Shown piece by piece: positions 41,315 through 60,009 of a stretch of DNA of 64,000 nt. Position numbers and translations under genes: made by a program. Every line of letters begins with the position of its first letter. Position 1 is the stretch's first letter. The stretch covers positions 1 through 64,000 of the forward strand of contig JAHHIM010000017.1 in NCBI GenBank assembly GCA_019358915.1, written 5' to 3'. Source of the stretch: Trichormus sp. ATA11-4-KO1. Its GTDB lineage: Bacteria; Cyanobacteriota; Cyanobacteriia; Cyanobacteriales; Nostocaceae. The notes under the pieces were generated by a model, which worked only from the letters and a program-made list of their open reading frames with translations, was not told the origin of the DNA and did no database searches.

Positions 41315-41479
41315 GCGAACAGATTAATCACTGTTATTCATCCCCACCCTACGAAACTTTGAAGGTGGGAATTTTTTATCCAAAAACGTCAAATAGGCAT
41401 AACTTAACACGCGCAAACATCGCTCTTTTGACCAGAGAAAGGAAAAAATGTACCTTAGACATCTCCAAAATAGTAACAT

Positions 41480-41980
41480 TTCATCAAATTCCGATGCAGA
41501 GATGATATTCAGTTCTTTGGCGCTGACTAAAGCGGCGATCGCAGCTGCTTGATCCCACATGGTGACGGAGGTAAAGCCATCCACGGAGTTAACTAAACAG
41601 GTTTCATCGTTCCAGTTGCGTTGAAAGTATGCCCAAGCTTGACGGGCGATCGCCATTTTTGCTGGGGTGAGTTCTCCTACGTTCGGCGCAATATAAGGAA
41701 TGAAGGAAATTGTGACTTGGTTAGAGCTGATGGGGTCGCCTGGTAACACCAAAGATTCTGCATCTAGTCTGGCAAGTTCTTCTGGATCAACTTCTGGTTC
41801 TGGCACTGGGGAAGGTTGAGTGATGGATGTTTCTGGTGTGTCTACAGAAGCAGTGCGAGTACGATTTAAATACGTAGACCACAAATTTAACCCAGCGATG
41901 GCGATCGCGGCTGTGACTACTCCGCCGACAGAAGCTAATATGGATAGGTTTTTTGGTGGTGGTTCAAAGTCAGAGGTCAT
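41480..41980 (-). pseudogene. Truncated DUF3131 (GH144-like) gene
   Basis: ARQAWAYFQRNWNDET.LVNSVDGF..VTMWD N-terminal motifs; recognisable sequence ends at ~EFDE, followed by an unrelated tail to a stop at 41324. Confidence 0.65.
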
Positions 41981-42101
41981 TTTTGTTTAGAGCCTTAAAG
42001 TAGCTTTCTCAAGCTTGGAAGAATAATTCAAGAAAAATGGAAGAACGCGGCGATTTCCTCACTGAGTGAAATTATTTTCAAGTAGGAAAATTAAAACCGT
42101 G

Positions 42102-42185
42102 GCAAGATTTTGATAATTTAGCAAAATACGCAAAGATTTCCGGAAAAATCTTACATATTATCTAATTTGAAACACAAAAACTTTA
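42102..42185 (+). promoter_or_regulatory. Putative regulated promoter, copy 1 (upstream of GNAT)
   Basis: GCAAGATTTTGATAATTTAGCAAAAT identical to inverted copy at 53542..53567; -10-like TATTAT downstream. Confidence 0.65.
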
Positions 42186-42415
42186 AATATAGGTCGGCAA
42201 AAGCCTCGAATGGGTAAGCCAAATTATCACCATTGCATAGTTGTAGTTTGAAAACACGCCTAGGCTCAAGAAAAAGCCAGCCATAAAAGGAGGATAAACA
42301 TGACAGAAAAAGCTGAATCGTGTCGGTATTTGGGTTGGTGTTGGCACACAATCCAACTTAGATCAGGGAGCAGATCTAGCTCCCTCTAACAGCGACCTAA
42401 AAACAGCTGAACACT

Positions 42416-43381
42416 ATGGTCGGAGAATTGCAATGGCAGCACAACGTTGGAACGGAATTAAGGACTAAGCTTGAGCGACATTACAGTATTTGGGCAGAGA
42501 TGGTTAAATCTATTGGCATGGAATTGAATATCCGAACCGCTACTAATGAAGATGTTGCATCATGTGGACTGATACTGCATCTGGCATTTACTCAAGTAAA
42601 TACAGCACATGGTTTTAGCAGCGAGTTTCCCAGTACGGAAATTGGCATACAAGCAGCCCAATTTTTTATTAATCACTTCTCCTATGACACCATTGTTGCT
42701 GAGTACAACGAGCAGGTTGTTGGTCTATGTTTTCTTGACAAGCGTAGTGTAGTTCATGGGGTAGCTATTGTTGCGGTACATCCTCATGCTCAGGGAAAAG
42801 CAATTGGTCGCAGACTGATGGAAACTGTTTTAGTACATAGTAAAAAAGCTTGCAGTATTCGCCTACTCCAGCACACGTTCAATACACAGAGCATCGCCCT
42901 CTACACTTCTTTGGGATTTGATGTGAAAGAACTGATCGTACTACTTAGTGGCAAACCAAAAGGAGAAATCCCTATTGGATATAGCGTTCGTCAGATGATG
43001 CATGAAGACCTGGAAAGATGTAAAGCATTGAGCGAGTCAGCTCTAGGTTTTGATCGAACAAAAGAATTGCAGGACGCATTGCATATGTTTAAGCCAGTCG
43101 TTGCTATGCGGGATGAACGCATTGTTGCTTATGCTTCTGCTACAGATGCTTGGCAACAGAATTATGGCATTGCTGAGAATGAAGAAGCTATGAAAGCGTT
43201 AATTTTGGGTATCAGCAAACTAGTTCCAGAAAATCTGGAATTTTTGTTACCTATCCGTCAGTCGAGCCTTTTTCGGTGGTGTCTGGAGAAGAAATTTCGT
43301 GTTGTTAAACCAATGACTTTGATGAGCATGGGTGAATATCAAGAGCCAAAAGGTTCTTATTTTACATCCGTTGCTTTTTGA
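42416..43381 (+). CDS. Two-domain GNAT N-acetyltransferase (start may be 42518)
   Basis: AVHPHAQGKAIGRRLM, NTQSIALYTSLGF. Confidence 0.88.
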   Translation: MVGELQWQHNVGTELRTKLERHYSIWAEMVKSIGMELNIRTATNEDVASCGLILHLAFTQVNTAHGFSSEFPSTEIGIQAAQFFINHFSYDTIVAEYNEQVVGLCFLDKRSVVHGVAIVAVHPHAQGKAIGRRLMETVLVHSKKACSIRLLQHTFNTQSIALYTSLGFDVKELIVLLSGKPKGEIPIGYSVRQMMHEDLERCKALSESALGFDRTKELQDALHMFKPVVAMRDERIVAYASATDAWQQNYGIAENEEAMKALILGISKLVPENLEFLLPIRQSSLFRWCLEKKFRVVKPMTLMSMGEYQEPKGSYFTSVAF

Positions 43382-43570
43382 CCCCCCGTACTCACCCGAA
43401 ACTTGAGTATTGTCACAGTTATAGAATATTGGACATGGGCTGCTTGTAGCTTTTGAGTTGTCGTTGTGGAAGACAACAACTCTACTACATCAGCCCTATT
43501 TATTCATCTTCTTTTTTAGTGAAAGTGTGAATTAACAAAATATGGCGTTGCTGAATTTATTGAGATAGGT

Positions 43571-44470
43571 TCATTGATTTCTGTAAGCCTTTGGTGTCAT
43601 CCGCGTCAGTTGTTGGAAACACTTGCCTAGATGACTCTGGCTGTTAAAACCACACAGTAAAGCAACATCAGCAATTGTTAACTTCTGTTGATTGAGCAAC
43701 TGCTTTGCTTTCTCTACTCGTTGCTGAATCACGTATACAGAAGGTGAAATGCCTGTAGACTGTTTAAAGAGGCGACTAAAGTAAAATTTGCTCATGCCGA
43801 TTGATTGAGCGATATCAGCTAACTTAATTTTCTCAGCGAGATGGTCGTTAATGTAATCAGTTACCTGTAGTAATTGGTAAACAGATAAGCCAGCAGAATA
43901 ATTAGAAACGCGATGCGTCCGATCAGAGTAATTTCTGAGCAAATGCACTGCTAGCGCATTGGTCAGAGATTCAACGTAAAGCTGTCCTCCTAAGCTCTCA
44001 TTGTGAAGTTCAGAGAGCAGCATCATGGCAAAATTTTCAATGTGTTGATCTCTGGCGCAAAACTCAGGAAACAGCTTGAACTGACTTGGATCAATCTCGA
44101 AGGCTTCATTCGCAATTGTCTGAACAAAGCTAGATGAAAGGCATATTCGGAGGTAGTGGTCATCATTCTCCCAACGCTCTGCAATTGGTAGCCCAGCAGG
44201 GGTAAGCGAGATGTCGCCTTTAGCATGAAGCCCCTGGTGAATTCGCTCGCCTTTCACTTGTACTAACTTAATGGGACGCGGCGCGAGAGAGACACAAATC
44301 ATATGCTCAGAACTGTTATGCATCTTGATTTGGCCAGGAGGTTGATGGAACTGCTCAACTAATATGTTGTCCCAGCCGCGCTGTTTACTCGATACAACGG
44401 GCAAATTGAGATGATGCTCCGATTCCTTAATTGTCTCAGAAGTAATTACGGCCGCAGATTTCATCTTCAA
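43571..44470 (-). CDS. AraC-family transcriptional regulator
   Basis: YFSRLFKQSTG, VALLCGFNSQSHL double HTH. Confidence 0.93.
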   Translation of the reverse strand: MKMKSAAVITSETIKESEHHLNLPVVSSKQRGWDNILVEQFHQPPGQIKMHNSSEHMICVSLAPRPIKLVQVKGERIHQGLHAKGDISLTPAGLPIAERWENDDHYLRICLSSSFVQTIANEAFEIDPSQFKLFPEFCARDQHIENFAMMLLSELHNESLGGQLYVESLTNALAVHLLRNYSDRTHRVSNYSAGLSVYQLLQVTDYINDHLAEKIKLADIAQSIGMSKFYFSRLFKQSTGISPSVYVIQQRVEKAKQLLNQQKLTIADVALLCGFNSQSHLGKCFQQLTRMTPKAYRNQ

Positions 44471-45188
44471 GATCCTCTAAGCTATGTGAATTTTGGCGTT
44501 GCACAATAACAATATGAATCAGGGCGAATCATAATCAGTAAACCACAAACTTTGGAAAACAAACTAAAGAACTAGGTTTCCAGCCTACATGAGCAAAACG
44601 ACAAATAGCATTAGTTTAACAGCAATAAGCCTGACGGCACGGCTTTTGTTGGTATGCTTCCATTTAGCTAAAATTTGCGCGTTGCAAGGTTTATCGAAAA
44701 ATTGATTTACTGAATCATGGAGTGTCCATGCTGCTGCTTAAATCGTAACCGTAAAAACTAAAGACACAGAGGCAAGCAGAATTACTGATGTACGGAATGC
44801 GATTCTTACGGTTAATATTCTACTTCGCTTTTCACAAGATAACGTTATGAGCGAGTTAAAGATTATCCGTGAGAGGTTAACTGACACCCTCAGTAAACCA
44901 AAAAGTTTTTTTTCGAGGTGCGAATCCTGCAACGGAAAATCCGTCTTCAGCGCTGGGGCAACTTTTTGGGCTGAGATATTAGCCATGACAAACACAGCAC
45001 TTGTCCATAGATAAAACGCCTATTTTATCTATCAACACCAAGTTTTCTGGGTCTATATGTTGGACTGGTTACCAATACTTACTTCTGACGCTATCTAAAA
45101 TTATTAACGAACTGACAAGTCAGTGCTTGCGCGAGCGCTACTTAGAAAATCTGTTTATTGAAAATATGGTGTGGTAATTCAGGCGCTC

Positions 45189-45743
45189 TTATCCTAATGA
45201 TTTCTCTCCCTGAACTCTTTGAGGTTTTTTCATTTGCTGCTCAAGCCAACATCTTCTTAAGAACAAAATGATTATTGCTGTCATTCCCATGACTACCAAA
45301 GGAGTGCTCAAGTTCCAATGTCCATACATCTTGTCATTAATATGCCAAAATAGTAAAAACATTGCTAAATACGTTAACTGATGTAACTGCCGCCAGTTTT
45401 TCTTCATTTTTTTGACACACCAGTCATTAGAAGTAATTGCTAGCAGTGTGAAAATAATAAATGTTGCTGATCCATGCACATATACTCTATAGGTAGTCAA
45501 ATCGAAGAAATCAAAATTTCTTTTGACTATCAAAAGCCAGGCATGTCCCAAGGCTAACACAAAAGATAAAATACCTAATTGACGACGATTTTTCAATAAT
45601 TGTATGATAAACTTTGCCTTTTTTAGCGTCGGAAAAATTATTCTTATAGAGGTAGGAATTAATGTTAAAATATAACTAATTACTGCTAAAAAACCTAGTA
45701 AATTAGCCATTGGAATAGAGATGTAAAGCCATGTAGTGTACAT
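45189..45743 (-). CDS. Ferric reductase-like transmembrane protein (MsrQ-like)
   Basis: RRQLGI..F..A.GH, LAITSND, WRQLHQLTY, FWH. Confidence 0.85.
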   Translation of the reverse strand: MYTTWLYISIPMANLLGFLAVISYILTLIPTSIRIIFPTLKKAKFIIQLLKNRRQLGILSFVLALGHAWLLIVKRNFDFFDLTTYRVYVHGSATFIIFTLLAITSNDWCVKKMKKNWRQLHQLTYLAMFLLFWHINDKMYGHWNLSTPLVVMGMTAIIILFLRRCWLEQQMKKPQRVQGEKSLG

Positions 45744-46096
45744 AATTTATCCTTTAAGTTTATTAATAAATAAAGTATTTGATTGATAATATCTTTTTCT
45801 AAAATTGCAAGTCAAAAAATATTTCTTTTAGCGATTAAATTTATCTTTATACTATGCTTGATTATTTAGTCTTAATATAAAAGTCGAATCAAACTTGAAA
45901 TTGCTGATATAAAAAGCTTCTTGTAATTATAAGAATGTTTTAATGGTTATATTAAAGTGTTGATCTAAGTACTAAAAAATAAAAAAATTTTTACATGATG
46001 AGAAAGCAAACAGAATTTAGACTAGTTGGGTAAACCTGCCACAAGGAAAATTCCCGTATAGAATGTATTAGTTTTACCTTCTAAAAAAATACCTTT

Positions 46097-46121
46097 CAAA
46101 TCCTTACTTTGTAAGGATTTG
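46097..46121 (-). terminator. Hairpin downstream of GDSL gene
   Basis: CAAATCCTTAC-ttt-GTAAGGATTTG perfect stem. Confidence 0.6.
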
Positions 46122-46139
46122 AGGTTTTGGTTTTACATC

Positions 46140-47243
46140 TTAATATGTTTTTTTCATCCGTCGCGGGCGTGTAATCGCGCCCCTTGGGCGCTGACATCTT
46201 GCACCTTGGTCAACAACTGAGTTGCTTGAGGATCTAATGAGGTTGAAAAACTTAATTTTTGGTCGAGAAACTTGCTTTATTAAGTCTTGCTGAGGATGGT
46301 GCAAGACAGCAGTCCCCCGTTTTCTTCTGTCATCAAAGCACAACAGTTGAGATGCAGACTCTGCTATGACCTCATGGCCAGCAGTTGTCGGATGAATGCT
46401 ATCCCAGAAAAAAGCTTGATTTGAGTTGGTATTACAGACAGCTGATATGCTAGAAGGTGGTAAGGCTGTCAAAACTGAGCTTCCCAAGCAAGAGCTAATC
46501 ACATCTGTAAAACCGTATCGTCTAGGATTAGCAAAGACCTGCTTAAATAATGAATTAATATCTAGAAAAGCGATGTTGATAGTGTTTAGTTGCTGGTTCA
46601 AAGAGTCAAGATTCGCAGCCAAACTAGTGTTGTATTTAGCTGTCAAATCGTTGAGTTTTTTAGAAGCTTGACTATCGTTTGTACCCGGTAAATCTCCCAA
46701 ATTTGGCAAGTTAACTACCAGAATATTGCTAGCTCCAGCAGCCGCAAGACTACGCACTGCCGTTAATATATTTGTGACTGGTTGGTTAGGATCAACAGTT
46801 TCGCTAGAGAAAAAGATATCATTGAAACCACCTGACACGATATAAAGCGCATTTGGGTTAACTGATTTATTAGCAGATGTAAAGTTATTAACCTGAGACA
46901 AAACCCCTGTTAAATATAATGAAGGCAACGATGGAGATGCAACGATGTTAAATAACCCTGATTCAGCACCAACAGCAGCAAAGTTAGTGTTTGGATTAGG
47001 CCTTAAGCCAAGTTTTTGCGCGAGATATTCCACCCAGACTGGACCATTCGTAAGACGTCCCTCATAGTAGGGTTGGGGAGGGAAGCCTGTTCCCAAAACA
47101 TTTTTTGTGTAATTGTAATAACTACCACTATCAGAGTAGCTGTCACCAAACACATAAATTTCATCGAAATCCGTAGCTGTTGCCTTAGATGAAAACATGA
47201 CAGACAACAGGAGAAATCCTGTCATTAAAATTTGCTTGTACAT
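46140..47243 (-). CDS. Secreted SGNH/GDSL esterase/lipase
   Basis: Signal peptide, FGDSYSDSG, GRLTNG, GGFND, FWDSIHPT; track start 47315. Confidence 0.9.
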   Translation of the reverse strand: MYKQILMTGFLLLSVMFSSKATATDFDEIYVFGDSYSDSGSYYNYTKNVLGTGFPPQPYYEGRLTNGPVWVEYLAQKLGLRPNPNTNFAAVGAESGLFNIVASPSLPSLYLTGVLSQVNNFTSANKSVNPNALYIVSGGFNDIFFSSETVDPNQPVTNILTAVRSLAAAGASNILVVNLPNLGDLPGTNDSQASKKLNDLTAKYNTSLAANLDSLNQQLNTINIAFLDINSLFKQVFANPRRYGFTDVISSCLGSSVLTALPPSSISAVCNTNSNQAFFWDSIHPTTAGHEVIAESASQLLCFDDRRKRGTAVLHHPQQDLIKQVSRPKIKFFNLIRSSSNSVVDQGARCQRPRGAITRPRRMKKTY

Positions 47244-47457
47244 GATAATTTTCTTCTCTTTTTTACAGTTGTGTCGCCAAACCTTTGGCAGTATGTCGGG
47301 TTTGTAATATGACAACAGATAGTTAGATATTGTTGGAAAAATGCAACTTGTGGGCAGAACAGATTAGCATCGGATAGAATTTCTTTGTCTGTAAAAATCT
47401 AGCGATCGCGAACGACAAAGAAATTTGCCATTATTTTTCTCAACTCCATCAGTCAGC

Positions 47458-48582
47458 TCAAGCTATTTGTTGAGATAACCACTGCTGAGTATTATTGATA
47501 CTGGCTTGCGGTTGGATCATGCAGTGATCAAAATAATCAAATGTTTGACCTAATGCCAGGCGTCGAGGCCAGTCTGGATTAGCTAAGGCTCCTCGCCCTA
47601 GAGAAACAATGTCTGCGTGTCCTTCTTGGATAATGCGGTTGGCTTGCTCTGGCTGGTGCATACCACCATTGGCAATAATCGGCACCTGAGCGACCTGCTT
47701 AGCAAGCTGAGTAATAGTTATGCCATCACCAATCATTGCTGTCTCAATCCAATCTCGACCTTCACTGGCAAGGTGAATAAAATCTACGCCAGCTTTCCGA
47801 AGTGCAGAGAAGATGACTCGACCATCTGCCTCACCTCCGGGCCAGCGATACTCGAAATCATTAACTTTAGTTTGGGATAGCCGAATCCCCACTGGATAGT
47901 TATTACCTACAGTTTGGCGAACGGCTTCAACAACCTCAACGGCAAAGCGAATCCGATTCTCTATCGGACCACCATATTGATCCGTTCGCAGGTTAGTGTA
48001 GTCTGTAATGAATTGATCGATCAGATAGCCATTAGCTCCGTGAATCTCTACACCATCAAAACCAATATTTTTGGCGTTGAGCGTGGATTGAGCGAAACCA
48101 GCGATCGCCTCTTGAATCTCCACTTCAGTCATGGCTTTAGGCATGGGGAATGCTCCTTGGCCTCCCCCATACTCCTCCATTTTTTGCCCCTTAGGTTGTA
48201 CTGCCGAGGGACCTACTGTATGATCCCGATGATGGTTGCCTTGGCAAAGTGCTCCGGCGTGCATGAGTTGAATGAAAATTGCAGAACCAGCAGCATGGAC
48301 AACTTCTACAACTTTGTGCCATCTCTCCATCTGTTGCTCAGTGACAATAGCTGGTTGGTTGATATAGCTCTGGCTGTAGGCGCGATCGGTGTAGGTTCCC
48401 TCGGTGATAATTAAACTAAAATTACCCTCAGCAAAGGCGGCATAGTACTGCACCATTTGCTTAGTAGGAATACCATCACCTCGGGTACTAACTCGAGACA
48501 TAGGAGCAACAGCAACTCTGTTTTTGAGATGAATGCCTCCCAACGTAAAGGAAGTCAAAACAGGATGTTGTGTAGATGTCAT
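47458..48582 (-). CDS. NADH:flavin oxidoreductase (old yellow enzyme family)
   Basis: NRVAVAPMSR, QLMHAG, GFDGVEIHGANGYLIDQF, YGGPIENR. Confidence 0.93.
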   Translation of the reverse strand: MTSTQHPVLTSFTLGGIHLKNRVAVAPMSRVSTRGDGIPTKQMVQYYAAFAEGNFSLIITEGTYTDRAYSQSYINQPAIVTEQQMERWHKVVEVVHAAGSAIFIQLMHAGALCQGNHHRDHTVGPSAVQPKGQKMEEYGGGQGAFPMPKAMTEVEIQEAIAGFAQSTLNAKNIGFDGVEIHGANGYLIDQFITDYTNLRTDQYGGPIENRIRFAVEVVEAVRQTVGNNYPVGIRLSQTKVNDFEYRWPGGEADGRVIFSALRKAGVDFIHLASEGRDWIETAMIGDGITITQLAKQVAQVPIIANGGMHQPEQANRIIQEGHADIVSLGRGALANPDWPRRLALGQTFDYFDHCMIQPQASINNTQQWLSQQIA

Positions 48583-48819
48583 TCTTATCCTCTCTCCTTC
48601 AACTTCATAAAACGCATAGATTTCTTAGATGATGTAAAAATTACACGCACTTGTGAGGATTGTCCTTTGTCATTAGTTATTGCCAACACTTGAGACAAAG
48701 GACAACGGAAAAATTAGAGCTTGAGAAATCCTCAAAATGACCTTTTCCACATCTTGTGAAAAGTCAAAACAAATCGCCTTACCCAACGGATTGTTGGTGG
48801 TCTGTAAAGAGAATTAGGA

Positions 48820-50616
48820 TTAAATTGCTAATGCAATAGTTTCTCGCTCAATCTTAGGAACAGATTGATTAAAATCCCATCGAATGTTCTTTCTTAGTGG
48901 TTCCATCAATTGATGTAGATCGCGAGGTTGCGATTTAGGTTGAAAAAGCCCATCATGCTCCCATCGGTCATCATCCAAACTAATCGCCCAAGCATTCAAC
49001 CACACTGGAGATGAAAACATGGTTAATTTCTCTGGCATTGTATCTTCTAAGGCCAACAAAAATATTACCTGAGCCAGTTCTTCCATAATTTTCAAATTAG
49101 CCACATAGTCATCACTGACCTCGCGCTCAGTCTTATTTGATTTCAGATTTGAACGCAGTTCATCAACAAAAGGCAGCATTGCTAAATAATCTAAAAACTC
49201 AAATGTCAGCCTATGCGATGGCTTATTTGCCCAGTCTAGAAATAACTGCTCTACGCGTTGTGATAGGGAAGAAAATTCTGAAAGTATATGCTGGAATCTC
49301 TCTGTGCTTTCTGGATCTAAAAACGACGAGTTAAAAATCAGTGGTGTTATAGTTGCCCAGGAAAACATAGCACCCCACACAAATTGCAATGTAAATACCA
49401 GGGAACTTTTACCCAGAAGCTGATAGATTGCTTCATATGCCGATGTCAACTGGTCATTAATCTTTAAGTAAAACTGATTTGCATGGTCAACCATTTTCTG
49501 CGTGAGTTGACCGCTTAGATCCAGTCGAATCAATTCGGTGGTTAAGGTATTCGCCAAGGCAATCATATCACTTCCAGGTGAATACAAAGGATCTACGAAT
49601 GTACCTGCTACACCCACACAAGCCCAACGGTCAAGAGAATATACCTGCGTAGAGGAGTGACTATACTTAGGCATTTTCATAAAATCATTGGGCTGTTCGT
49701 CTTTTAGGTAATTAGCTAGTGCAGGCTCGTATTTTTGTAACCACTTGTAAGCCTTTTCGTAAGTATTGTATTCCTGAAAATTATGCACATCATCGCTGGC
49801 GACAATACCAAGACTTGTATATCCAGAAGACAAAGGAATCAGCCAGACCCAATATCCATCACCCACTAAGTGATTAGTGGAATGATAGCGCAGATTATTA
49901 GGAACACGAGCGTGCCACTGTGACTCACTGACCGGAACTAAATCGCTGACATCAAGGCGCTTATTTATCCGAAACCAGACAGCACTACGGTTTTTGCTGT
50001 TAGGTTTTGCTAAATCCAGTTTTTTTTGCAATAATCGGCGGTGACCAGTTGCATCAACTACCCAGCGAGCTTTAACTATTTGAGTTTGTTTGGTATCTAA
50101 TTTCTTATAGATAACTGTGTGAAACTCATCACTCTCTCGCATCTCAATATCTTGCACAGAACAATTTTCTAACAAGTCTATGCCTGCGGCAACATTAAAA
50201 TCGCGTAAATCATTCTCAAATATCCCCCGATCCAATTGATAGGTATATTTTGAATGAAAAGAGTTAAAGTCTGCTACTCCCAGTTCTGGTCGCTTTTGTA
50301 AAGGTGCTTGTGAATTACCTAGGAAGAACCGCAGCCCAAGTTTCATCAAATGGTGCTCTTGAATGTAATCTGTTAGGTGTAAAACCTCTGCAAAATAGAA
50401 AGAACCAATTTCAACTGTTGATTCCCCAACTTTAAAGGTCGCAACTGGTAGGGGTCTAACGAGTCGGTCACAAACCAAAATCGAGATGTGAGGCATTTTG
50501 AGCCTCAATTGTCGTGCCAGAGTCATCCCAGCTAGACCACCACCACAGACAACTACATCATATGTATCTTGTAGTTTAGGCGACTGAGAGCTTTCGATGG
50601 ATTTGAGCATCATCAT
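48820..50616 (-). CDS. Flavin-dependent halogenase-like protein
   Basis: GGGLAG, KVGEST, K.GLRF lysine, YQLDRG.FE, WVWLIP (WxWxIP), FVDPLYSPG. Confidence 0.85.
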   Translation of the reverse strand: MMMLKSIESSQSPKLQDTYDVVVCGGGLAGMTLARQLRLKMPHISILVCDRLVRPLPVATFKVGESTVEIGSFYFAEVLHLTDYIQEHHLMKLGLRFFLGNSQAPLQKRPELGVADFNSFHSKYTYQLDRGIFENDLRDFNVAAGIDLLENCSVQDIEMRESDEFHTVIYKKLDTKQTQIVKARWVVDATGHRRLLQKKLDLAKPNSKNRSAVWFRINKRLDVSDLVPVSESQWHARVPNNLRYHSTNHLVGDGYWVWLIPLSSGYTSLGIVASDDVHNFQEYNTYEKAYKWLQKYEPALANYLKDEQPNDFMKMPKYSHSSTQVYSLDRWACVGVAGTFVDPLYSPGSDMIALANTLTTELIRLDLSGQLTQKMVDHANQFYLKINDQLTSAYEAIYQLLGKSSLVFTLQFVWGAMFSWATITPLIFNSSFLDPESTERFQHILSEFSSLSQRVEQLFLDWANKPSHRLTFEFLDYLAMLPFVDELRSNLKSNKTEREVSDDYVANLKIMEELAQVIFLLALEDTMPEKLTMFSSPVWLNAWAISLDDDRWEHDGLFQPKSQPRDLHQLMEPLRKNIRWDFNQSVPKIERETIALAI

Positions 50617-50672
50617 ATCTGCAAAGAGTGGTAAAAGGAAAATTTACTAATACTAAGACCCTATGAGGTCTG

Positions 50673-51614
50673 CTAACGCCAATCATCTATGACATAAGCC
50701 TTGGGGTGATTAAAAGCAGGTTCATTTGGGTTATGCATTGCAACGCCTAGTCTTTCGATCCGGAAGCCAAAGGCCAGCATCTGTTGATAAGCTTGTTGAC
50801 GTGCGGTGTTGACTCCACCGATGAGACGTGATGCTCCCTGCAATACACTCAGCCTTTCGCACTCTTGGAGCAACTGCTCGAAATTTTGCTCTACTTTCAG
50901 ACCCAAACGGACTGCCGCAAACTTGATATAGCAATTGTCGCTTCCGGCTTCAGTGTCTTTCCCGTAATGACAAACAGCAAAACTTGTTAGACTTTTGTTA
51001 TCCCAGAGAAAGATTGTATCGCCTAGTCCTTGTTTTTCCACAGTACGAATTTCACGTTCTAAATCTAACCCATCGTAAAGAGTATCAGTCAGTTCTCGGC
51101 TGCATTTGAGACACTCCCTTTGTTTGTCTTCAGGTAATTCGGAATATCTTATTCCTTGTAATAACTGTTGGGCTGGTCTAACAGTTTTAGACATAATGGC
51201 TGTGAGAAATTGAGGATAAAATCCAAACTTTTGATACAAATTGAGATGCAAAGGGCTGTCAGAACGAGTGAAGAAACCTGCCTGCTTGATGTCCCAACGC
51301 TGGAAACATTCCATAGCTGGTTCAATTAATCGCTGGGCAATTCCTTTACCCCAAAAATCTGGATGTACTGTTAAAGGACCAAAAAGTCCAAAGCTTCCCC
51401 AATTAATCGCAAAATTTGAACCTACCAGTTGTCCATCAACTTCCGCCGCAAAGGCAGTAGTTGGGTCAGTATACCAGCGTTTCATGAATGTCATATTGCT
51501 GGTATAACTCGTTGCACTATGATTGGCATTGAAAGTGGCAAATGCAAGTTTAAAGACTTGGTCTGCGATCCCTAGTTCACTCTCTTTTAGTGGGCGAATA
51601 GAGATATGCATCAT
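50673..51614 (-). CDS. Two-domain GNAT N-acetyltransferase
   Basis: GPLTVHPDFWGKGIAQRL, LYQKFGF. Confidence 0.88.
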   Translation of the reverse strand: MMHISIRPLKESELGIADQVFKLAFATFNANHSATSYTSNMTFMKRWYTDPTTAFAAEVDGQLVGSNFAINWGSFGLFGPLTVHPDFWGKGIAQRLIEPAMECFQRWDIKQAGFFTRSDSPLHLNLYQKFGFYPQFLTAIMSKTVRPAQQLLQGIRYSELPEDKQRECLKCSRELTDTLYDGLDLEREIRTVEKQGLGDTIFLWDNKSLTSFAVCHYGKDTEAGSDNCYIKFAAVRLGLKVEQNFEQLLQECERLSVLQGASRLIGGVNTARQQAYQQMLAFGFRIERLGVAMHNPNEPAFNHPKAYVIDDWR

Positions 51615-51819
51615 ATTATTCCCAAAAAGTTGATCTGCTTAGATAAAATTGAAGTCGGCCTTATTTAGTCTTTTGACTAAATACCAAGTAAAATTGTTAA
51701 GTCTTGAATCCCTGTGGTAATTTGGGTGTTATTTTTACTCTGGTTCAAGCTTAAATTGCTAAAGCAGCAATTGCCTTTATTGACTGACTTAGATGACTTA
51801 GACAAAACTAAAAATTATA

Positions 51820-52197
51820 TCAGTAATGTGAAGAGACATAATTTTTCAGTTGGTGGGATTCATGACCTATTAAAGCTGGATAAAACACACATACGAGACG
51901 TAGCATAGTTTTGGCTCGGAGGTAATGTTTATCATGCTTATTAAGAGCATACATAGTACCGGGTTTAATGGGATAGATAACACCTTCTGCCTCCACTTCA
52001 CCCTCACCTTCAATGCAATAGCAAGTTTCAAAGTGATTTTTGTATTCCAATAAGGACTCTGTACCAGCTTCAACAATTGTGTCTGTGAGGGAATAGCCCA
52101 TGCCATCTTTTTCAATCAGGAATCGACGGCTTCTACCGTTACCCCATTCAACGTCTCTTTCTGTATCAACAATTTTGTTTAAGTCATTGAGAATCAT
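51820..52197 (-). CDS. ectC: Ectoine synthase-like cupin (no ectA/ectB nearby)
   Basis: SRRFL...DGMGYSLTDT, YKNHFETCYCIEGEG, PGTMYALNKHDKH, CVFYPALIGHESH. Confidence 0.9.
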   Translation of the reverse strand: MILNDLNKIVDTERDVEWGNGRSRRFLIEKDGMGYSLTDTIVEAGTESLLEYKNHFETCYCIEGEGEVEAEGVIYPIKPGTMYALNKHDKHYLRAKTMLRLVCVFYPALIGHESHQLKNYVSSHY

Positions 52198-52343
52198 TTG
52201 AAAGCCTCCTGAGAAAGTAGTTAAGTGGTAATTCGTTTGTCAGAGATGACATCTGCATCTGATTTTTAGAAAAAGTCAAGCTCTAGGGTTAACTGAAAAG
52301 CTTTGGTTGATGCACAGAATTCTTGAAAGTTGCTAACATCCTT

Positions 52344-53450
52344 TTAGGAAGGTATTTTCAGCCAATCGAATGGTTGCCGCAAAATCATGAAAGACATACC
52401 AGTAGCTCCCTCAAAGTTGTCTAAATTTAGACCTTTTTTGCTCCGTTCCACAGTTCCCTGTCCTTGGAGCAGGCGATGAATGCGATAACGAAAATAGTTA
52501 TTGAGTAGTTTTGGCGCAGACACATACTGTAAATAATCACGTAGATACAATTCAGCATCCAGTTGAGGTAGTAAGTACCAGGGACAGGTCATTAATACAT
52601 GGTGTGCGTTGTGGTAGTTGTTGTTGAGACATAGTATTAGACTGAGCCAAGGTGGCAAGACAAGAGAATAGGTATTGGCTTCCTCATAATCCAGACTGTA
52701 CTTCGGCACCTCTGCGTTGATGATGAAAGCAGAGTAAGTGTGTTGAAAGCCTTCTATGAATTGAATGATATGAAGGAAGCAGCTGTAAGCAATAAAGTAG
52801 AGAATAACTGAACGGGGGGAATATATTGCTAATACTGTAAACAAGACCCCTCGTAACATTAGAAGCACAGCATTTTGAACACGCTCGTCCCGTCGATTCT
52901 GACTGAGAAAGGGAGCTAGAGCAATCATCCAACGAAAGATGAGATTGACTGCGGGTATGCACAGCCACTCTAGGAAAATAATCAACCTGAGTATGGGTGT
53001 CGGTAAAGATTTTAGGAAATCGGTAATTGAAGCAGGAAAAAATGGGGAAAAATCAGCTCTATGTACATGGTGAGCGATATGATGTAAAGCCAAATCGCGG
53101 AAGCGGCTATAGCAAGAGCCAGTGAGAAAAAGCATAGCTTCACCAAATGCCGCGTTCAGACTTGGACGGGAGAAAATATTGTGGTGGAAAAGTTCGTGGA
53201 GAAAGAGAGCAGCCCATGTCAAAGTGTGTGTTAGTAAAGCGACTCCCAGCAGATTTAACCACCAAATATTTACTGTAATACAGAAGAGGGAGAATCCATA
53301 GCTAGCAAATATGTAAGCTATGGTTATGCCATTGATCCAGTAATTACGGTGGTGGATATAAAACTTCAAGTTAGGAGTTTTCTTGACCTCTATCTCGCTT
53401 GCGGATATCTTTGCGTTAGTTTCAGGTATCTGTACGTATGTTGTAGGCAT
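52344..53450 (-). CDS. Membrane fatty-acid desaturase family protein
   Basis: Three His boxes HELFHH, HIAHH, HNAHH plus TM helices. Confidence 0.9.
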   Translation of the reverse strand: MPTTYVQIPETNAKISASEIEVKKTPNLKFYIHHRNYWINGITIAYIFASYGFSLFCITVNIWWLNLLGVALLTHTLTWAALFLHELFHHNIFSRPSLNAAFGEAMLFLTGSCYSRFRDLALHHIAHHVHRADFSPFFPASITDFLKSLPTPILRLIIFLEWLCIPAVNLIFRWMIALAPFLSQNRRDERVQNAVLLMLRGVLFTVLAIYSPRSVILYFIAYSCFLHIIQFIEGFQHTYSAFIINAEVPKYSLDYEEANTYSLVLPPWLSLILCLNNNYHNAHHVLMTCPWYLLPQLDAELYLRDYLQYVSAPKLLNNYFRYRIHRLLQGQGTVERSKKGLNLDNFEGATGMSFMILRQPFDWLKIPS

Positions 53451-53484
53451 GTTTTTCTTTTTTTCAACGCATTCTGTTATGTTT

Positions 53485-53567
53485 TAAACTTTGGCTTTAC
53501 AATTTAGATGCTATGGAAAATTTGTATTAAAAGCTATTTAAATTTTGCTAAATTATCAAAATCTTGC
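53485..53567 (-). promoter_or_regulatory. Putative regulated promoter, copy 2 (upstream of desaturase operon)
   Basis: Same 26-bp site as 42102..42127 plus gap-free downstream similarity, with -10-like TAGCAT at the same offset. Confidence 0.7.
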
Positions 53568-53834
53568 TGGTTGTTCGTTGCGGACGAGTTGAGATTCAAA
53601 GCCGTGAGTCTATCTTTTTAGGCTGGAAACTCGCTCAGAGTGGACTTGTGTATACACCGTAGCCAGAACCCGTGAATTACAAGAACAAATGTTAGCCGCA
53701 GGATTACCTATTTAATTAGTTATTAATATTACTAATAATTTGACGACAATTCTTTTTGAGTCTAGTTGCAATTAATACTGGCTCAGAATGATTATTATTG
53801 CTGGCTCCTACAGTTACCCATTAAGAGTGCCCTT

Positions 53835-55232
53835 TCACAAACCCATCACTGTACGATAATGAAGCTCCAATTGTGCTACGGTTGGAGATTTGCGTTTTGT
53901 CTGCCACTGACTACGATTAAATAATTCTTGCCGTAAGTTATCAACATTAATTGTTGTCACTTGACCATCAGCAATAATTTGTTTGCCATTTACCCAAGCG
54001 CTATCAACAACATTTGTCGGACGACCTAAAACTAATAAACCAATGGGATCTGTACGAGGAAGTAATGATAAGTTGATGAGGTCATAAAGCACTAAATCGG
54101 CTTGTTTACCTACAGTGAGAGAACCGATTTTATCTGCCATATTCAGTCCTTTTGCACCGCCCAAGGATGCCATTTCTACTGCTTGCCTGGATGTGATCCA
54201 GTGTTGATAGTCTAAATCTGTAACGTTGTGCAAGATAGAACCAATTTTGATGGCTTCTAGCAAATCTTGAGAGTCGTTACTGGAAGCACCATCACAACCA
54301 AAAGTTACATTTACTCCGGCTTGACGATATTTTAAAATTGGGGCGATGCCACTGCCTAAACGCAGGTTACTTAACGGGTTGTGAACAACTGTAGATTCAG
54401 TTTGTGCCAGGATAGCAATATCAGCATCATTTAACCAGACGCAATGGGCTAGAGAAGTGCGATCGCTTAAATATCCGATGCGTTTAAGATGTTCAACAGC
54501 AGTACAACCGTATTTTTCTTGGGCGAGTTTTTCCTGTGCCTTAGTTTCCAGTAAGTGGGAGTGACGACAAAGATGATAGCGATCGCTTAATTCAATACAT
54601 CCCTCAAATAACGCATCAGTACACAACTGTATCCCTGTCGGTGCTACTAACATACTCACACCCTCATCCGGGCGATGAAATTGTCTCACCGCTTCTTCTA
54701 TAATTTCTAATGTGGCCGCAGTTGAACGAAAATAAGGTTCATGGGTTTGTGCTGATTCCCCAGAGGGAATACCTGCGGCGAGGGATTCATCTTGAATGAG
54801 GGGTGCAATAAAGGCACGAATTCCTACTTCTTGGTAAGCATGAACAGCAGTAGCAATAGTTTCTAATTCTTGCCCAGGAATTAACACCAGATGATCTACT
54901 ACACTCGTCCCACCAGATAGTAGGGTTTCTGTTGCTGTTCCCAAGGCGCTGAGATAAACTTGTTCGGGATCAAGAGGGGCAAAGTCGTATAATTCCGCTA
55001 GCCATAATTCTAAAGGAAAGATTGACATAATCCCCCGTTGCCACATTTCTGATGAGTGGGTGTGGGCATTAACGAAACCAGGTAGTAATAGCTTATTGCT
55101 ACCATTAAAGACAGTACCGCTCACATCTAGATCAGGTGCTATAGCGGCTATCTTACCCTCTACAACCTGCACATCTACAGTTGCATAATCGTCATCAGTG
55201 GCAATCAGAACATTCTTAATAGTAAAATTCAC
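53835..55232 (-). CDS. Metal-dependent amidohydrolase (AtzB/TrzA/SsnA-like)
   Basis: PGFVNAHTH, HSHLLET, AHCVW, HNPLSNLRLGSG, GCDG.SSND, GKQADLV. Confidence 0.92.
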   Translation of the reverse strand: MNFTIKNVLIATDDDYATVDVQVVEGKIAAIAPDLDVSGTVFNGSNKLLLPGFVNAHTHSSEMWQRGIMSIFPLELWLAELYDFAPLDPEQVYLSALGTATETLLSGGTSVVDHLVLIPGQELETIATAVHAYQEVGIRAFIAPLIQDESLAAGIPSGESAQTHEPYFRSTAATLEIIEEAVRQFHRPDEGVSMLVAPTGIQLCTDALFEGCIELSDRYHLCRHSHLLETKAQEKLAQEKYGCTAVEHLKRIGYLSDRTSLAHCVWLNDADIAILAQTESTVVHNPLSNLRLGSGIAPILKYRQAGVNVTFGCDGASSNDSQDLLEAIKIGSILHNVTDLDYQHWITSRQAVEMASLGGAKGLNMADKIGSLTVGKQADLVLYDLINLSLLPRTDPIGLLVLGRPTNVVDSAWVNGKQIIADGQVTTINVDNLRQELFNRSQWQTKRKSPTVAQLELHYRTVMGL

Positions 55233-55289
55233 GATTTACCTCTAGCACTACATTTCAACTATTCTATGAGTAGCATTTGAGTAGCAAAA

Positions 55290-56471
55290 TTAAAAATCAG
55301 GACATTCTGCATCAACTACGTTGGGGTGACAGTAGTACTTGAGTACCGTCTGAACCTCATCACCAATCCACAGTGCAACTTTTTCGGGAGTGACACCAGT
55401 CGCGATCGCCCATGTAGCGAAGGTGTGTCTTGTGGCATAAGGCTTGAGATAGTAGGGAATTTTCCTGGATTGTGCCAGTTGTCTAACAACACCTGGGTAA
55501 CGGCAGAGATGACCATTATTGACGACGGCTGATTGATTCCAGACATTATTTAGAATTGCTCCAGTCATCTCGTTTCCAAGTCTGCTTCTAAAAATCAACT
55601 CGCTGGCAACGGCGTTATCAGGTCTAACCGTCAATAGCAGGTTTTGGACTTTGGAGCCACGAGCAGCCGGAAATATTCGCCTTTTCCCGTTCTTCGTGCC
55701 TTTGAGTATGCCGTGCAAATTTCTGGACTTGGTAATTGATATCCGGCAGCAATCAGCACTAACATCTGCCCAGGTGAGAGCAAAGGCCTCTCCTGGTCGG
55801 CAGCCGGTGAAGAACAAGAATTTGACTAGATCGGTGTAATGACAATGGCGCTCATGAAATTCAAAAGCATTGATAATGATGTCTCTCTGTTCTAGGGTGA
55901 AAGCAAGGTAATCTTCACTATCGGTTGATTTTTGCCTCGGTTTTGGAATTTTCAGCTTATCAAACGGATTTTCAGTAATTAGTTGAGAATCCTTAGCCCA
56001 TTCACAACACTGACTAAATTTTGTTAGTAGATGCCATGCCATGTATTGAGTAGTGTTTTTTGTGAGCCAATCTCTGATACTTGATGCGCGATCTAATTCT
56101 TGTGTTGGGAATCGCTTTATGTATCTAGCAATGGCTGCATAACTGCCCTTGATGGTCGTTTTTTCAACCATAGTTGACTTAAACTCGGTGAATAGCTCCC
56201 ACAGTTCACCGAGGGACTTGGTATTAGGTATGTGAACTGTGGGGGCTAGACGTTGAGAACCAAATTTGTAGCGTTCGAGCGTATGGTCGAATTCCCCTAA
56301 CCCAATATCAGCTTCAATAACATCTCTCCGCGCTTGGACAATTACTCTATTTCTTTTGGTGTCCCTCAGTCCTGTAGATAGATAGAACTGACGAGAAAAT
56401 CCGCGAACTCGAAAGCGTAATGAAAGCTTTCGAGTTCGCGGGTCAACGTTTATCCATTTATCGTCATCCAT
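55290..56471 (-). CDS. Tyrosine recombinase/integrase with N-terminal arm-binding domain
   Basis: TGCRPGE, TKNGK, YATRHTFAT, catalytic-region KYY. Confidence 0.93.
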   Translation of the reverse strand: MDDDKWINVDPRTRKLSLRFRVRGFSRQFYLSTGLRDTKRNRVIVQARRDVIEADIGLGEFDHTLERYKFGSQRLAPTVHIPNTKSLGELWELFTEFKSTMVEKTTIKGSYAAIARYIKRFPTQELDRASSIRDWLTKNTTQYMAWHLLTKFSQCCEWAKDSQLITENPFDKLKIPKPRQKSTDSEDYLAFTLEQRDIIINAFEFHERHCHYTDLVKFLFFTGCRPGEAFALTWADVSADCCRISITKSRNLHGILKGTKNGKRRIFPAARGSKVQNLLLTVRPDNAVASELIFRSRLGNEMTGAILNNVWNQSAVVNNGHLCRYPGVVRQLAQSRKIPYYLKPYATRHTFATWAIATGVTPEKVALWIGDEVQTVLKYYCHPNVVDAECPDF

Positions 56472-56486
56472 TGATATCGCTAGTTA

Positions 56487-56906
56487 TTAATGCGGTATAT
56501 TTTTGTGTTTAAATTCTTCAGTTAGCCCATTAATGGAATATCGTTTTTTCTCGGTTGCATAGCCGTAAACAACCTCCTTAATTACATCTTGCCGTCTGTC
56601 CATGAGTGCCAAGCAATCATCGCAGACAACAGTAATAGCCCCGTCGCTGGGCAAGCCGCAAACAAGACAGCCCCAACCCGTACCTGGGACAGGTGCTTTC
56701 TTTTCTAGGGTGATGATGTTCCGTACAGTTTCCCCCGTGCAGCCGCAACTACAACACGTCCCCAGGTCAAGGGATTCTTCATCGTAGTCTGGATCGTCTT
56801 CATCTTCACTCCAAACGTAACCGCAATCATCGCACTCCCAAAATCCAAAATAATCGTCATATTGAGTGCGGGATGAATCGCATTTGGGGCATTGTTCACC
56901 ACTCAT
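56487..56906 (-). CDS. Cys-rich zinc-binding hypothetical protein
   Basis: CPKC, CDDC, CCSC, CLVC, CDDC. Confidence 0.75.
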   Translation of the reverse strand: MSGEQCPKCDSSRTQYDDYFGFWECDDCGYVWSEDEDDPDYDEESLDLGTCCSCGCTGETVRNIITLEKKAPVPGTGWGCLVCGLPSDGAITVVCDDCLALMDRRQDVIKEVVYGYATEKKRYSINGLTEEFKHKNIPH

Positions 56907-57441
56907 TCCTCAATCCCTCATCTAAAATCTGCTGCAACCGTTGCTTGCCCTCTTCCCAGCGACGGCCGCCCAATTTCAAAACCTGCTCAATTACATAAGT
57001 CTCACCCTTGACTTCCAGTAATGACTTCACAGCCAAATAAAACGCTTTTTTCTCGGAAGTGGAAGTGGAAGCTTCAACCGGATGATCCGCGCTCGGCTCC
57101 TGGACTAAGTGATTGAGGGAATCAATTAACTCCTGGTGAACTTCCGGCGGGTAAGTTTGGGTGGGTGCAGCGCCGTAGATTTCATAAAGTGCCTGTTCTT
57201 GGTTTTGTGCGCTCAGTGCAATTTCAACTTGTTCTAGTTCCAGGTTCATCACGGCTAGGGCAGCGCGGCGGGCATCTTGAATCATCAGCCGTTTTGAGTC
57301 CTGGACAAGTTGCACCGAGGACACCAACGCCAAACCGTAGGAAATGCCTCTGGCCACATTGGGAATAGGGGAAAGTGCGGCTAACCATAAGGCTGCTGCA
57401 CTGGCAAGAAGACAATTGCACTTTAACCAGCGATCAGCCAT
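56896..57441 (-). CDS. Hypothetical membrane protein
   Basis: Two N-terminal hydrophobic segments; overlaps both neighbours. Confidence 0.7.
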   Translation of the reverse strand: MADRWLKCNCLLASAAALWLAALSPIPNVARGISYGLALVSSVQLVQDSKRLMIQDARRAALAVMNLELEQVEIALSAQNQEQALYEIYGAAPTQTYPPEVHQELIDSLNHLVQEPSADHPVEASTSTSEKKAFYLAVKSLLEVKGETYVIEQVLKLGGRRWEEGKQRLQQILDEGLRNEW

Positions 57442-57695
57442 GTCAGGACTCCTCCCAAGAAAATGGCGGCGGCGATCGCGATCAGCATCGCGTAATAATC
57501 CGGCTCAGTTAATTTGATAAACGGTCTAATCGCGTCGTCGGTCACCAATGCCAAGACCAGCGCCGCAGATGCAACGATGTAAACAACCCACATCACCCGA
57601 AATAAAGCCGGATGTAACGCCCCTAGCCACGATACACAGCTAGAGGCGATACACCCAGTTAGGAACCATGCCCCCAGGTGTACCGCCTTTGCCAT
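57423..57695 (-). CDS. Small 3-TM hypothetical protein
   Basis: 90 aa, three hydrophobic helices, abuts upstream stop. Confidence 0.7.
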   Translation of the reverse strand: MAKAVHLGAWFLTGCIASSCVSWLGALHPALFRVMWVVYIVASAALVLALVTDDAIRPFIKLTEPDYYAMLIAIAAAIFLGGVLTWLIAG

Positions 57696-58211
57696 TTAGT
57701 ATTGCTCCTTGACTTTGGCTTTTAGTTCATCAATGCGTTTTTGGGCGTTGTTTTCGGCGCGGTCTAACCCGGCTCCCAACTTGGCATACTCAGGGCGCAG
57801 CGCGTGTAGATGTCTGGCTGTGGCTGCATCGGTACGTTTCTTCACTAGTTCGCTGTCAGCTACGCCGCGAATATAGCTGCGATGAGCGGAGTGTACCTGA
57901 GCATCGGCATTTTCAATCTTCTTGAGGGATTTGTAAGCTCGTTTTGATTGAATGGCTCCTTGTGCGGTTTGGGTGGCGAGTGCCTTGAGTGCGTCGGCTT
58001 CTTGCTTGTTAAAATATCGCGGATTATGACTGACGGGTGCTGTCCTCACGGTTTCCCAACTTCCCGCGTTCATGGGATTGATTACAGTTTGGTCAGTTGG
58101 GGATAACACCCGATTTTTATCTATGGCATGGCCTCCGGTGGCGAGTGATGATTGATTGGTGCTGCTGTTACCGGATTTACCCCGGCTGGTAATACGTGCT
58201 AAGACTCCCAT
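57696..58211 (-). CDS. Hypothetical helical protein
   Basis: 171 aa, GGAG RBS, operon position. Confidence 0.75.
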   Translation of the reverse strand: MGVLARITSRGKSGNSSTNQSSLATGGHAIDKNRVLSPTDQTVINPMNAGSWETVRTAPVSHNPRYFNKQEADALKALATQTAQGAIQSKRAYKSLKKIENADAQVHSAHRSYIRGVADSELVKKRTDAATARHLHALRPEYAKLGAGLDRAENNAQKRIDELKAKVKEQY

Positions 58212-58223
58212 TAGTTTTTACTC

Positions 58224-58472
58224 CTACCTACAAACTTGGGTTTTAACTTTTTGCAGCTGCTGCACGTCAGCTTGCATCTGTCGCAGTTCAATTTGGTCAG
58301 CGCTTTGGTAGGTTGCCATTGCACCAATACTCAAGCCGGCGACTAGGGACGCGGCGACCATGACTAAGTAAGCAGCCGTGTTATTCGCGGCTGGGGTGGG
58401 TTGTATTTCGGTGGGGTAAAATTCACCAGTGAATGGTACAACCTTACTGGTTTGCTGTTTAGTCTTGTTCAT
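58224..58472 (-). CDS. Small single-TM hypothetical protein
   Basis: MNKTKQQ start overlapping upstream stop; TM then short coiled coil. Confidence 0.65.
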   Translation of the reverse strand: MNKTKQQTSKVVPFTGEFYPTEIQPTPAANNTAAYLVMVAASLVAGLSIGAMATYQSADQIELRQMQADVQQLQKVKTQVCR

Positions 58473-58914: not shown

Positions 58915-59191
58915 GTTGCCCCCAACGGATTTGTGCAATGAGCGCTTCAAGTAGTCCTTCTTGTTCTGATAAGGGGAGTTTTTCTTGTATCTTGGCTCCT
59001 ATTTCGTAAATTTCGTTGCGGGTTTCGCCTGGGGCATCGCCGCACATTTGAGCAGACAGGGAGGAGATGAGGAATAATTTCTCTCTCTTGGTCATCCGCT
59101 CGAATGTTGCGCCGTATGTTTCTTGTAGGTAATCCAGAAATGTACCGTCACCTGGGGTGTAATTGGTGTAATAGCCTATTGGCTTGGACAT
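58889..59191 (-). CDS. Hypothetical protein (100 aa)
   Basis: MSKPIGYYTN start preceded by AAGGAG; longer track start (59455) doubtful. Confidence 0.7.
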   Translation of the reverse strand: MSKPIGYYTNYTPGDGTFLDYLQETYGATFERMTKREKLFLISSLSAQMCGDAPGETRNEIYEIGAKIQEKLPLSEQEGLLEALIAQIRWGQHEPTVHNT

Positions 59192-59618: not shown

Positions 59619-59637
59619 ATCATGAAACCCTTACCAA

Positions 59638-59980: not shown

Positions 59981-60009
59981 ATGGATGGGTTACTAGTTTA
60001 CGCCTGGGT

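Follow-up and report, generated by a model that had tools for sequence, protein, structure and literature searches.

A conserved desaturase-ectC-GNAT1-halogenase cassette in Trichormus sp. ATA11-4-KO1 and its possible product

Introduction

Do the genes between positions 42102 and 53567 of a 64,000-nucleotide (nt) stretch of the cyanobacterium Trichormus sp. ATA11-4-KO1 belong to one biosynthetic pathway, and what might that pathway make? The stretch, called the window below, covers positions 1 to 64,000 of contig JAHHIM010000017.1 (contig C17) in a genome of 5.97 Mb. A first-pass annotation had described a nine-gene biosynthetic island there, built around an ectoine synthase gene (ectC) that lacks its usual partners. 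Open reading frame (ORF) calling and Pfam/NCBIfam profile scans of the island proteins, with 15 window ORFs scanned against Pfam, showed all nine genes to be intact and of the families first assigned. Eight genes lie on the minus strand and encode a membrane desaturase, EctC, the acyltransferase GNAT1, a flavin-dependent halogenase, an old yellow enzyme (OYE), a GDSL hydrolase, an MsrQ-like protein and an AraC-family regulator. The ninth, GNAT2, is on the plus strand and convergent with the AraC gene, as had been stated. We found that the first four genes form a real, rare and co-inherited small-molecule cassette that is apparently undescribed. The EctC subfamily points to its probable first product, and a tentative route can be drawn from there.

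Distribution of the cassette

The core genes are the desaturase (52344..53450), ectC (51820..52197), GNAT1 (50673..51614, 313 amino acids (aa)) and the halogenase (48820..50616), all on the minus strand and separated by 146, 205 and 56 nt, with a further 237 nt before OYE. The same order was found on a plasmid of Gloeothece verrucosa PCC 7822 (locus L037), where the four proteins showed 70, 79, 72 and 66% identity and hpaB came next; the EctC of this strain is WP_013334621.1. It was found again in Moorena sp. SIO3H5 (L097; 69, 82, 66 and 68% identity), where ectC was doubled, two genes were inserted, and TauE and an AzoR-type gene stood after the cassette. Because the four genes recur in order at these two loci, the refutation foreseen by the first-pass annotation, that the genes never co-occur in other genomes, fails. 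Shorter arrangements were also seen. Genome G668 carried ectC-desaturase-GNAT1-UbiD (L081) and, at a contig end, desaturase-amidohydrolase (L082). The remaining loci showed EamA-desaturase-ectC-AzoR-chorismate lyase (L096), desaturase-amidohydrolase-ectC-MATE (L099), desaturase-ectC-EamA (L134), and a desaturase with the start of ectC at the locus end (L135).

Across these nine loci of the desaturase clade, the window included, ectC was present at eight, GNAT1 at four and the complete set at three. Four of the nine (L082, L096, L134 and L135) were short or cut, so these counts are lower bounds. The locus counts exclude double returns, copies that were nearly identical, four fragments and the record of the window itself (L085, L087, L098, L100-L102, L131-L133, L136, L137, L139, L140, L143, L144, L146 and L147). 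The association is specific to the clade, with ectC standing beside the desaturase at 7 of 8 other loci of the clade versus 0 of the 45 loci that represent other members of the family. Checked indirectly, the top 22 desaturase matches included 12 that apparently share a genome with an EctC match. In a FastTree phylogeny, the cassette desaturases fell into a 26-row clade with a support of 100. The four cassette GNATs likewise formed one clade (support 100), apart from 22 solitary rows; of these, L250 was a wrong ORF and carries no information. The cassette halogenases belonged to a 6-row clade (support 99), apart from their NRPS-linked and chorismate-lyase-linked relatives (NRPS, nonribosomal peptide synthetase). 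The cassette is rare, since desaturase matches above 60% identity occurred in only 2 of 389 genomes of the family, its own included. A locus scan with the halogenase alone found no loci. No description of the cassette was found in the full-text literature; subscription journals and MIBiG were outside the scope of this search, and a description elsewhere is possible.

Co-inheritance therefore holds for the four-gene core of the proposed island. No homologue of OYE, the MsrQ-like gene, AraC or GNAT2 was present at the other cassette loci fetched, so the nine genes as one conserved pathway are unsupported. Two other cassette loci carried an AzoR-type flavin oxidoreductase instead of OYE. The GDSL gene is a partial exception, as its best plasmid match (62% identity, the next being 39%) lies 8 kb from the Gloeothece cassette. 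OYE, the GDSL hydrolase, the MsrQ-like protein and GNAT2 are accessory genes. On the same Gloeothece plasmid, 14 kb from the cassette, genes for a thiamine pyrophosphate-binding protein, a KAS III-like protein and a methyltransferase were noted (L037 35920-39935), a set that we take to resemble the furanolide type.

The EctC subfamily and its predicted product

EctC passed the cut-offs of PF06339 and NF009806, and its site residues were read from an alignment to P. lautus EctC (PDB 5ONM). The iron ligands are kept as E57, Y83 and H91, corresponding to Glu57, Tyr84 and His92 of ectoine synthase, and S23, R25, T40, Y52 and F105 also match the ectoine-synthase site. The set of substrate residues (Trp21, Arg25, Asn38, Thr40, Tyr52) is broken at two places: position 21 is a Gly, with a Trp at 18 instead, and position 38 is a Thr. 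The combination W18/G21/T38 with E57/Y83/H91 was found in 120 of 120 EctC homologues among the matches listed, the query included, while the ectABC-linked EctCs in L045 and L224 had W21/H38. A shifted Trp in some orphan EctCs is mentioned in PMC6344544, and both that paper and PMC5924519 state the role of solitary EctC proteins as unresolved.

The first-pass annotation had seen no ectA or ectB in the window, and neither adjoins ectC. The genome holds a single ectC and no EctA over the cut-off. Its one diaminobutyrate (DABA) aminotransferase over the cut-off is on contig C20, inside a cluster of NRPS and polyketide synthase (PKS) genes; an EctB-specific model was not searched. A complete ectABC set is thus missing. 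In L223 (7742-8899), a canonical-type EctC domain was seen fused within a 385-aa protein.

Outside the desaturase cassettes, W18/G21/T38 EctCs were found beside NRPS or NRPS-PKS genes (L213-L220), with carrier, ketosynthase, dehydrogenase and trp-like genes (L212, L227), with ATP-grasp ligases (L038), in a PKS-Rieske-EamA cluster (L041, L042, L221), with EamA alone (L039, L043, L222), or near nothing obvious (L040). The clusters of L041, L042 and L221, from three genomes, bring together PKS, PhyH dioxygenase, EamA, Rieske oxygenase, EctC, glycosyltransferase, APS kinase and sulfotransferases. The NRPS and NRPS-PKS clusters of L213-L220 span cyanobacteria, Mycetohabitans and Rhizobium, always next to an EctC of this subfamily.

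The adenylation (A) domains in these clusters are informative. All seven that were scored, from three phyla or classes and with the L219 fragment left out, share the pocket D-I-H-Y-x-A-H/N-D-V, its positions numbered by what we take to be the GrsA scheme. The best solved matches of the L216 pocket were TycB (E 4e-19) and GrsB (E 2e-18), the next NRPS being at 7e-9. TycB and GrsB modules load proline. The extra Asp in the pocket would suit an amidine, and we regard the pocket as a candidate code for loading 5-amino-3,4-dihydro-2H-pyrrole-2-carboxylate, or ADPC, which is a proline analogue. In L227, EctC occurs together with an AMP ligase, a carrier and a dehydrogenase whose best matches, PigA and RedW, both scored under the cut-off. 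In vitro, ADPC is formed from glutamine by Athv28, an EctC homologue encoded in the anthelvencin cluster (PMC8627960). Together, the proline-type A domains, the PigA/RedW-like dehydrogenase and Athv28 point to ADPC as the product of the W18/G21/T38 subfamily. We consider it fairly probable that the island EctC makes ADPC from glutamine.

The desaturase and GNAT1

The desaturase (PF00487), a membrane di-iron protein of the desaturase/hydroxylase family, has the three His boxes of the membrane fatty-acid desaturase superfamily, at 85, 123-128 and 280-284. Their residues H85/H89, H124/H127/H128 and H280/H283/H284 were invariant in 23 of 23 members. None of these 23 passed the cut-off of a named NCBIfam subfamily, so the protein is not placed among acyl-lipid desaturases or carotenoid oxygenases; its best subfamily match was CrtW, at E 6e-4. 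A structure model of mediocre quality (pLDDT 65) gave no structural match at E<=0.001, a profile search of solved structures gave no match, and in Atlas look-ups only generic clusters of desaturases and GNATs came up. The wider cyanobacterial family (L083-L130, L138) was repeatedly located among genes for creatininase, urea carboxylase, type III glutamate-ammonia ligase, amidohydrolase and ABC importers. These neighbors are nitrogen-scavenging genes, not lipid genes, which suggests that the desaturase family acts on small nitrogenous compounds. A gene named as a desaturase, rtxC, is described in PMC5827301 as acting on a free amino acid.

GNAT1 has solitary relatives of 41-56% identity, found in various contexts in 22 of 150 other genomes, and no core gene lay within 1.5 kb of any of them.

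The halogenase

Residue K92 of the halogenase (PF04820) was invariant in 68 of 68 sequences and aligned to a lysine of PltA that is presumably catalytic. The GxGxxG, WVWLIP (WxWxIP) and FxxPxxSxG motifs by which PMC8407142 defines flavin-dependent halogenases were all present, and both the WxWxIP motif and the lysine read by the first-pass annotation were confirmed. A structure model of high quality (pLDDT 92.8) had the halogenase fold, with PltM, CtcP and PltA as best matches; all fold matches were at 16-22% identity and included pyrrole halogenases at similar E-values. The island proteins showed no carrier or ligase motif, and neither was found in the L037 and L097 cassettes, which sets the enzyme apart from the carrier-dependent McnD/AerJ type. 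The halogenase thus probably takes a free substrate. It is adjoined by OYE. A relative at 38% identity (L050) lies beside a P450 and a tryptophanase, a setting that we take to be AetA-like, AetA presumably acting on free indole. Proteins of the L049 type we take to be McnD/ApdC-like, and those of L046-L048 ambigol-like. AetA is named as a halogenase in PMC12210266.

Two further observations concern halogenases and their substitutes. Contig C15 of the same genome (24000-40600) holds a PKS-like cluster with two tandem flavin halogenases, 27-29% identical to that of the window, and an ABC exporter, and several relatives have comparable halogenase pairs. The UbiD that takes the halogenase's place in L081 was considered as a pyrrole-2-carboxylate decarboxylase, and this assignment is unsupported, as the protein resembles AroY (E 5e-114) much more closely than PA0254 (E 3e-20).

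Control by the AraC regulator

The island limits coincide with an inverted repeat of 90 nt, 73% complementary, with a 26-nt perfect core and outer ends exactly at 42102 and 53567. In 100 shuffles, no match of this kind exceeded 20 nt. Both arms are directed inward. One (53478..53567, minus strand, core 53542-53567) faces the desaturase, its outer end 117 nt before the ATG, and the other (42102..42191, plus strand, core 42102-42127) faces a flavodoxin remnant and GNAT2. The core had no further copy within 3 mismatches in the genome. A search of 185 other genomes of the family with up to 3 mismatches returned four matches, and the reversed control none. The foreign copies were single and promoter-like. 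Two of the four lay about 127 nt before a MATE or an AzoR-like gene, each divergent from an AraC gene. Their AraC proteins were 54% (MATE) and 53% (AzoR-like) identical to the island AraC (43571..44470, minus strand), compared with 33-35% for the genome's other two full-length AraCs. When a matrix was built from these two sites, the window arms ranked first (the desaturase arm) and second in the genome, at 44.8 and 25.7 bits, with the next site at 21.2. This ranking is partly circular because the foreign sites were found with the window's core; the neighboring AraC was no part of the search.

These features make it likely that the 26-nt site is an operator bound by the island AraC. With the predicted operator in front of both transcription units, the core operon and GNAT2 are probably both driven by AraC in this strain, and the inclusion of AraC and GNAT2 in the island is supported to that extent, as strain-level co-regulation. 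A scan of 7 other cassette loci did not return the operator, which makes AraC control a local, non-conserved feature. We also considered the arms as transposon ends and rejected this, given that there is no other copy, no transposase inside the island, and only a 2-nt flanking match for a target duplication. The predicted activator and operator mean that the cassette could be switched on here and read by liquid chromatography-mass spectrometry.

Accessory genes and genomic setting

Downstream of the core on the minus strand are OYE (47458..48582), the GDSL hydrolase (46140..47315, likely start 47243) and the MsrQ-like membrane protein (45189..45743). The closest plasmid relative of the GDSL hydrolase has a PEP-CTERM-like tail, from which the tail of the island copy differs. 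The MsrQ-like gene matches PF01794, stays below the MsrQ cut-off and has two paralogues at 78-80% identity elsewhere in the genome; we regard it as cargo. GNAT2 (42416..43381, plus strand) is 23% identical to GNAT1 and probably starts at 42500 or 42518, behind the frameshifted remnant of a flavodoxin-family gene (42300..42468, plus strand; C-terminal 54 aa). No NRPS or PKS was seen by eye in the ORF list of the rest of the window; the Pfam scan covered the 15 ORFs mentioned above. Promoter and terminator scans gave chance level only, and the island's G+C content (35-43%, genome 41.7%) leaves no compositional mark.

In a genome of the same genus (G001), homology to the window ends at 41996 and resumes near 53832. 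Positions 41997-53831 are missing there, so the whole stretch is strain-variable. The amidohydrolase upstream (53835-55232) was rejected as a cassette member because it is a resident gene, 97% identical in G001. Just outside the other end, a DUF3131 gene is truncated (window 41324-41980, 41456-41479), and about 6.6 kb of G001 are missing here, comprising the rest of that gene, a second DUF3131 gene and an ABC transporter set. Two short dispersed repeats at 43409-43517 and 53605-53665 have copies on other contigs; in L048, the sequence next to a transposase-like ORF matches the first of them as well. A tyrosine-integrase element of about 14.5 kb (window 55216-64000, on contig C17 to 69819) lies where the amidohydrolase gene has its 5' end. 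It is delimited by an exact direct repeat of 101 nt (55216-55316 and C17:69719-69819), for which an assembly effect is also possible. The element contains an 892-aa ORF at 60529 and ORFs of unknown function. Phage-tail-like ORFs (sheath-, tube-like) at window 21500-25550 look by eye like a contractile injection system locus.

Proposed pathway and alternatives

We propose a route without a carrier protein. EctC would cyclize glutamine to ADPC, and the desaturase would oxidize ADPC to 5-aminopyrrole-2-carboxylate, as the carrier-free counterpart of the PigA/RedW-like step in L227. GNAT1 would then acylate the amine, stabilizing the electron-rich ring, and the halogenase would put Cl or Br onto it. 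Halogenase, HpaB and UbiD would then be exchangeable, each tailoring the same electron-rich aromatic acid. That the cassette leads in this way from glutamine to a halogenated N-acylaminopyrrole carboxylate is a tentative proposal with somewhat less than an even chance. Three of its points are held weakly: that the desaturase may oxidize rather than hydroxylate, that the steps may run in this order, and that the halogenase may act on a pyrrole. The widest version is more doubtful still. It would make the W18/G21/T38 EctC a dedicated cross-phylum ADPC synthase with its own A-domain code, with the cassette's desaturase-family enzyme aromatizing a free amino-acid ring and a phenol-halogenase lineage switched to pyrrole.

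Several observations weigh against the aminopyrrole route. Full cassettes number only three, and the EctC tree did not resolve the desaturase-linked EctCs as a clade. With H. elongata EctC, the glutamine equilibrium is reported on the hydrolysis side (PMC5924519), and the kosinostatin pyrrole is published as deriving from nicotinic acid, though its region is labelled 'ectoine' (PMC7918784). The genome has no stand-alone PF01613 flavin reductase, all six matches being frames of 570-650 aa; other reductase families were not searched. The weightiest objection concerns descent: the halogenase, HpaB and UbiD all come from phenol-acting lineages. The halogenase relatives at 55-58% identity are in NRPS or chorismate-lyase clusters, and its characterized kin McnD/AerJ are thought to act on carrier-bound tyrosine (PMC8407142). 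The AroY-like UbiD of L081 and the extra gene of L037, which passes the HpaB cut-off, both point to phenols.

This objection leads to a rival with two linked modules, in which the desaturase and EctC make an ADPC-type amine and GNAT1 with the halogenase (elsewhere HpaB or AroY-type UbiD) handles a phenol, the product being a halophenol amide or two separate compounds. A phenol-type enzyme does stand directly after GNAT1 at all four GNAT1 loci (halogenase at three, AroY-like UbiD at one, with HpaB added in L037), a chorismate-lyase gene is near L096, and PltM, the best fold match, appears as a free-phenol halogenase in a table of PMC8407142. However, the fold matches are of low identity and pyrrole halogenases score similarly, and no CoA ligase or carrier for activating a phenolic acid was found at any cassette locus fetched; we regard this arrangement as somewhat unlikely. 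The first-pass annotation had GNAT1 acylating a diamino acid such as DABA before EctC closed an ectoine-like amidine for the desaturase and halogenase to tailor. The eight residues shared with the ectoine-synthase site, from S23 to F105, and the DABA aminotransferase in the genome would fit this, as would a P. syringae orphan EctC that complemented an ectC mutant (PMC5924519). Against it are the changes of W21 to G (with W at 18) and N38 to T, the embedding of that aminotransferase in an unrelated NRPS-PKS cluster, and the ectC-desaturase loci L096, L099 and L134 that lack GNAT1. Moreover, electrophilic halogenases act poorly on saturated amidines. That EctC comes first, with glutamine as its substrate, is likelier than this order, since GNAT1 occurs at four of nine loci against eight for ectC and since the neighbors of the EctC subfamily are built for a proline-like ring; the acyl-diamine route appears improbable.

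A further possibility, hardly more probable, is a detoxification or nitrogen-scavenging regulon, in which AraC senses an outside compound, EctC works in the direction of cyclic-amidine hydrolysis, and modification of the compound falls to the desaturase, the GNATs, OYE and flavodoxin. It would account for the creatininase, urea carboxylase, amidohydrolase and ABC-importer genes beside the wider desaturase family, for the MATE and AzoR genes faced by the two closest AraC relatives found, and for the scattered solitary relatives of GNAT1; EctC can hydrolyze cyclic amidines (PMC5924519). Yet the cassettes have no importer, a halogenase is hard to place in catabolism, and elsewhere the EctC subfamily goes with assembly lines and exporters. 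Finally, the genes might be a chance pile-up in a variable region or cargo between transposon ends, and the absence of 41997-53831 from G001, the pseudogene and dispersed-repeat remnants and the MsrQ-like gene agree with that. For the four core genes, this explanation is largely refuted by the gene order and clade congruence across distant genomes, and the repeat, without further genomic copies or an internal transposase and with single, promoter-like foreign counterparts, does not behave as transposon ends. We consider it very unlikely.

Comparison with known systems

The W18/G21/T38 EctC subfamily gains a sequence signature and a predicted product, ADPC, which would explain what a long-puzzling enzyme class does and flags several uncharacterized NRPS/PKS clusters that would start from ADPC. 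If the cassette does make a halogenated N-acylaminopyrrole carboxylate, both a desaturase-family enzyme and a halogenase independent of carriers would gain new reactions. The cassette is small, and one copy sits on a plasmid of Gloeothece verrucosa PCC 7822, a strain in culture.

A close parallel is the ADPC synthase Athv28/Ant24 of the anthelvencin cluster, likewise an EctC homologue outside ectABC with the iron site kept, in a secondary-metabolite cluster (PMC8627960). There, however, NRPS parts link ADPC to a pyrrolamide chain, whereas the island has no NRPS or carrier and brings a desaturase, GNAT and halogenase. Ectoine synthase (PDB 5ONM; NF009806) shares the cupin fold, the iron ligands and most substrate residues, but the island EctC has G21 with W18 and T38, and no ectA or ectB beside it. 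The kosinostatin-type pyrrole cassettes (L227, L212; PMC7918784) combine the same EctC subfamily with an oxidizing enzyme suited to turning a proline-like ring into a pyrrole; they differ in being carrier-bound, in using an acyl-CoA-dehydrogenase-type oxidase, in their published precursor and in lacking a halogenase. The cyanobacterial phenol halogenases McnD/AerJ and the relatives in chorismate-lyase/C-PCP-TE and NRPS clusters have the same motifs as the island halogenase, which nonetheless falls in a separate clade and stands without a carrier, ligase or chorismate enzyme. RtxC, which we take to belong to the His-box membrane di-iron family, and guanitoxin GntB represent that family outside lipid metabolism, acting on small free metabolites. 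The island desaturase shares the family with them and would likewise work outside lipid metabolism, but differs in having no significant match to any named NCBIfam subfamily.

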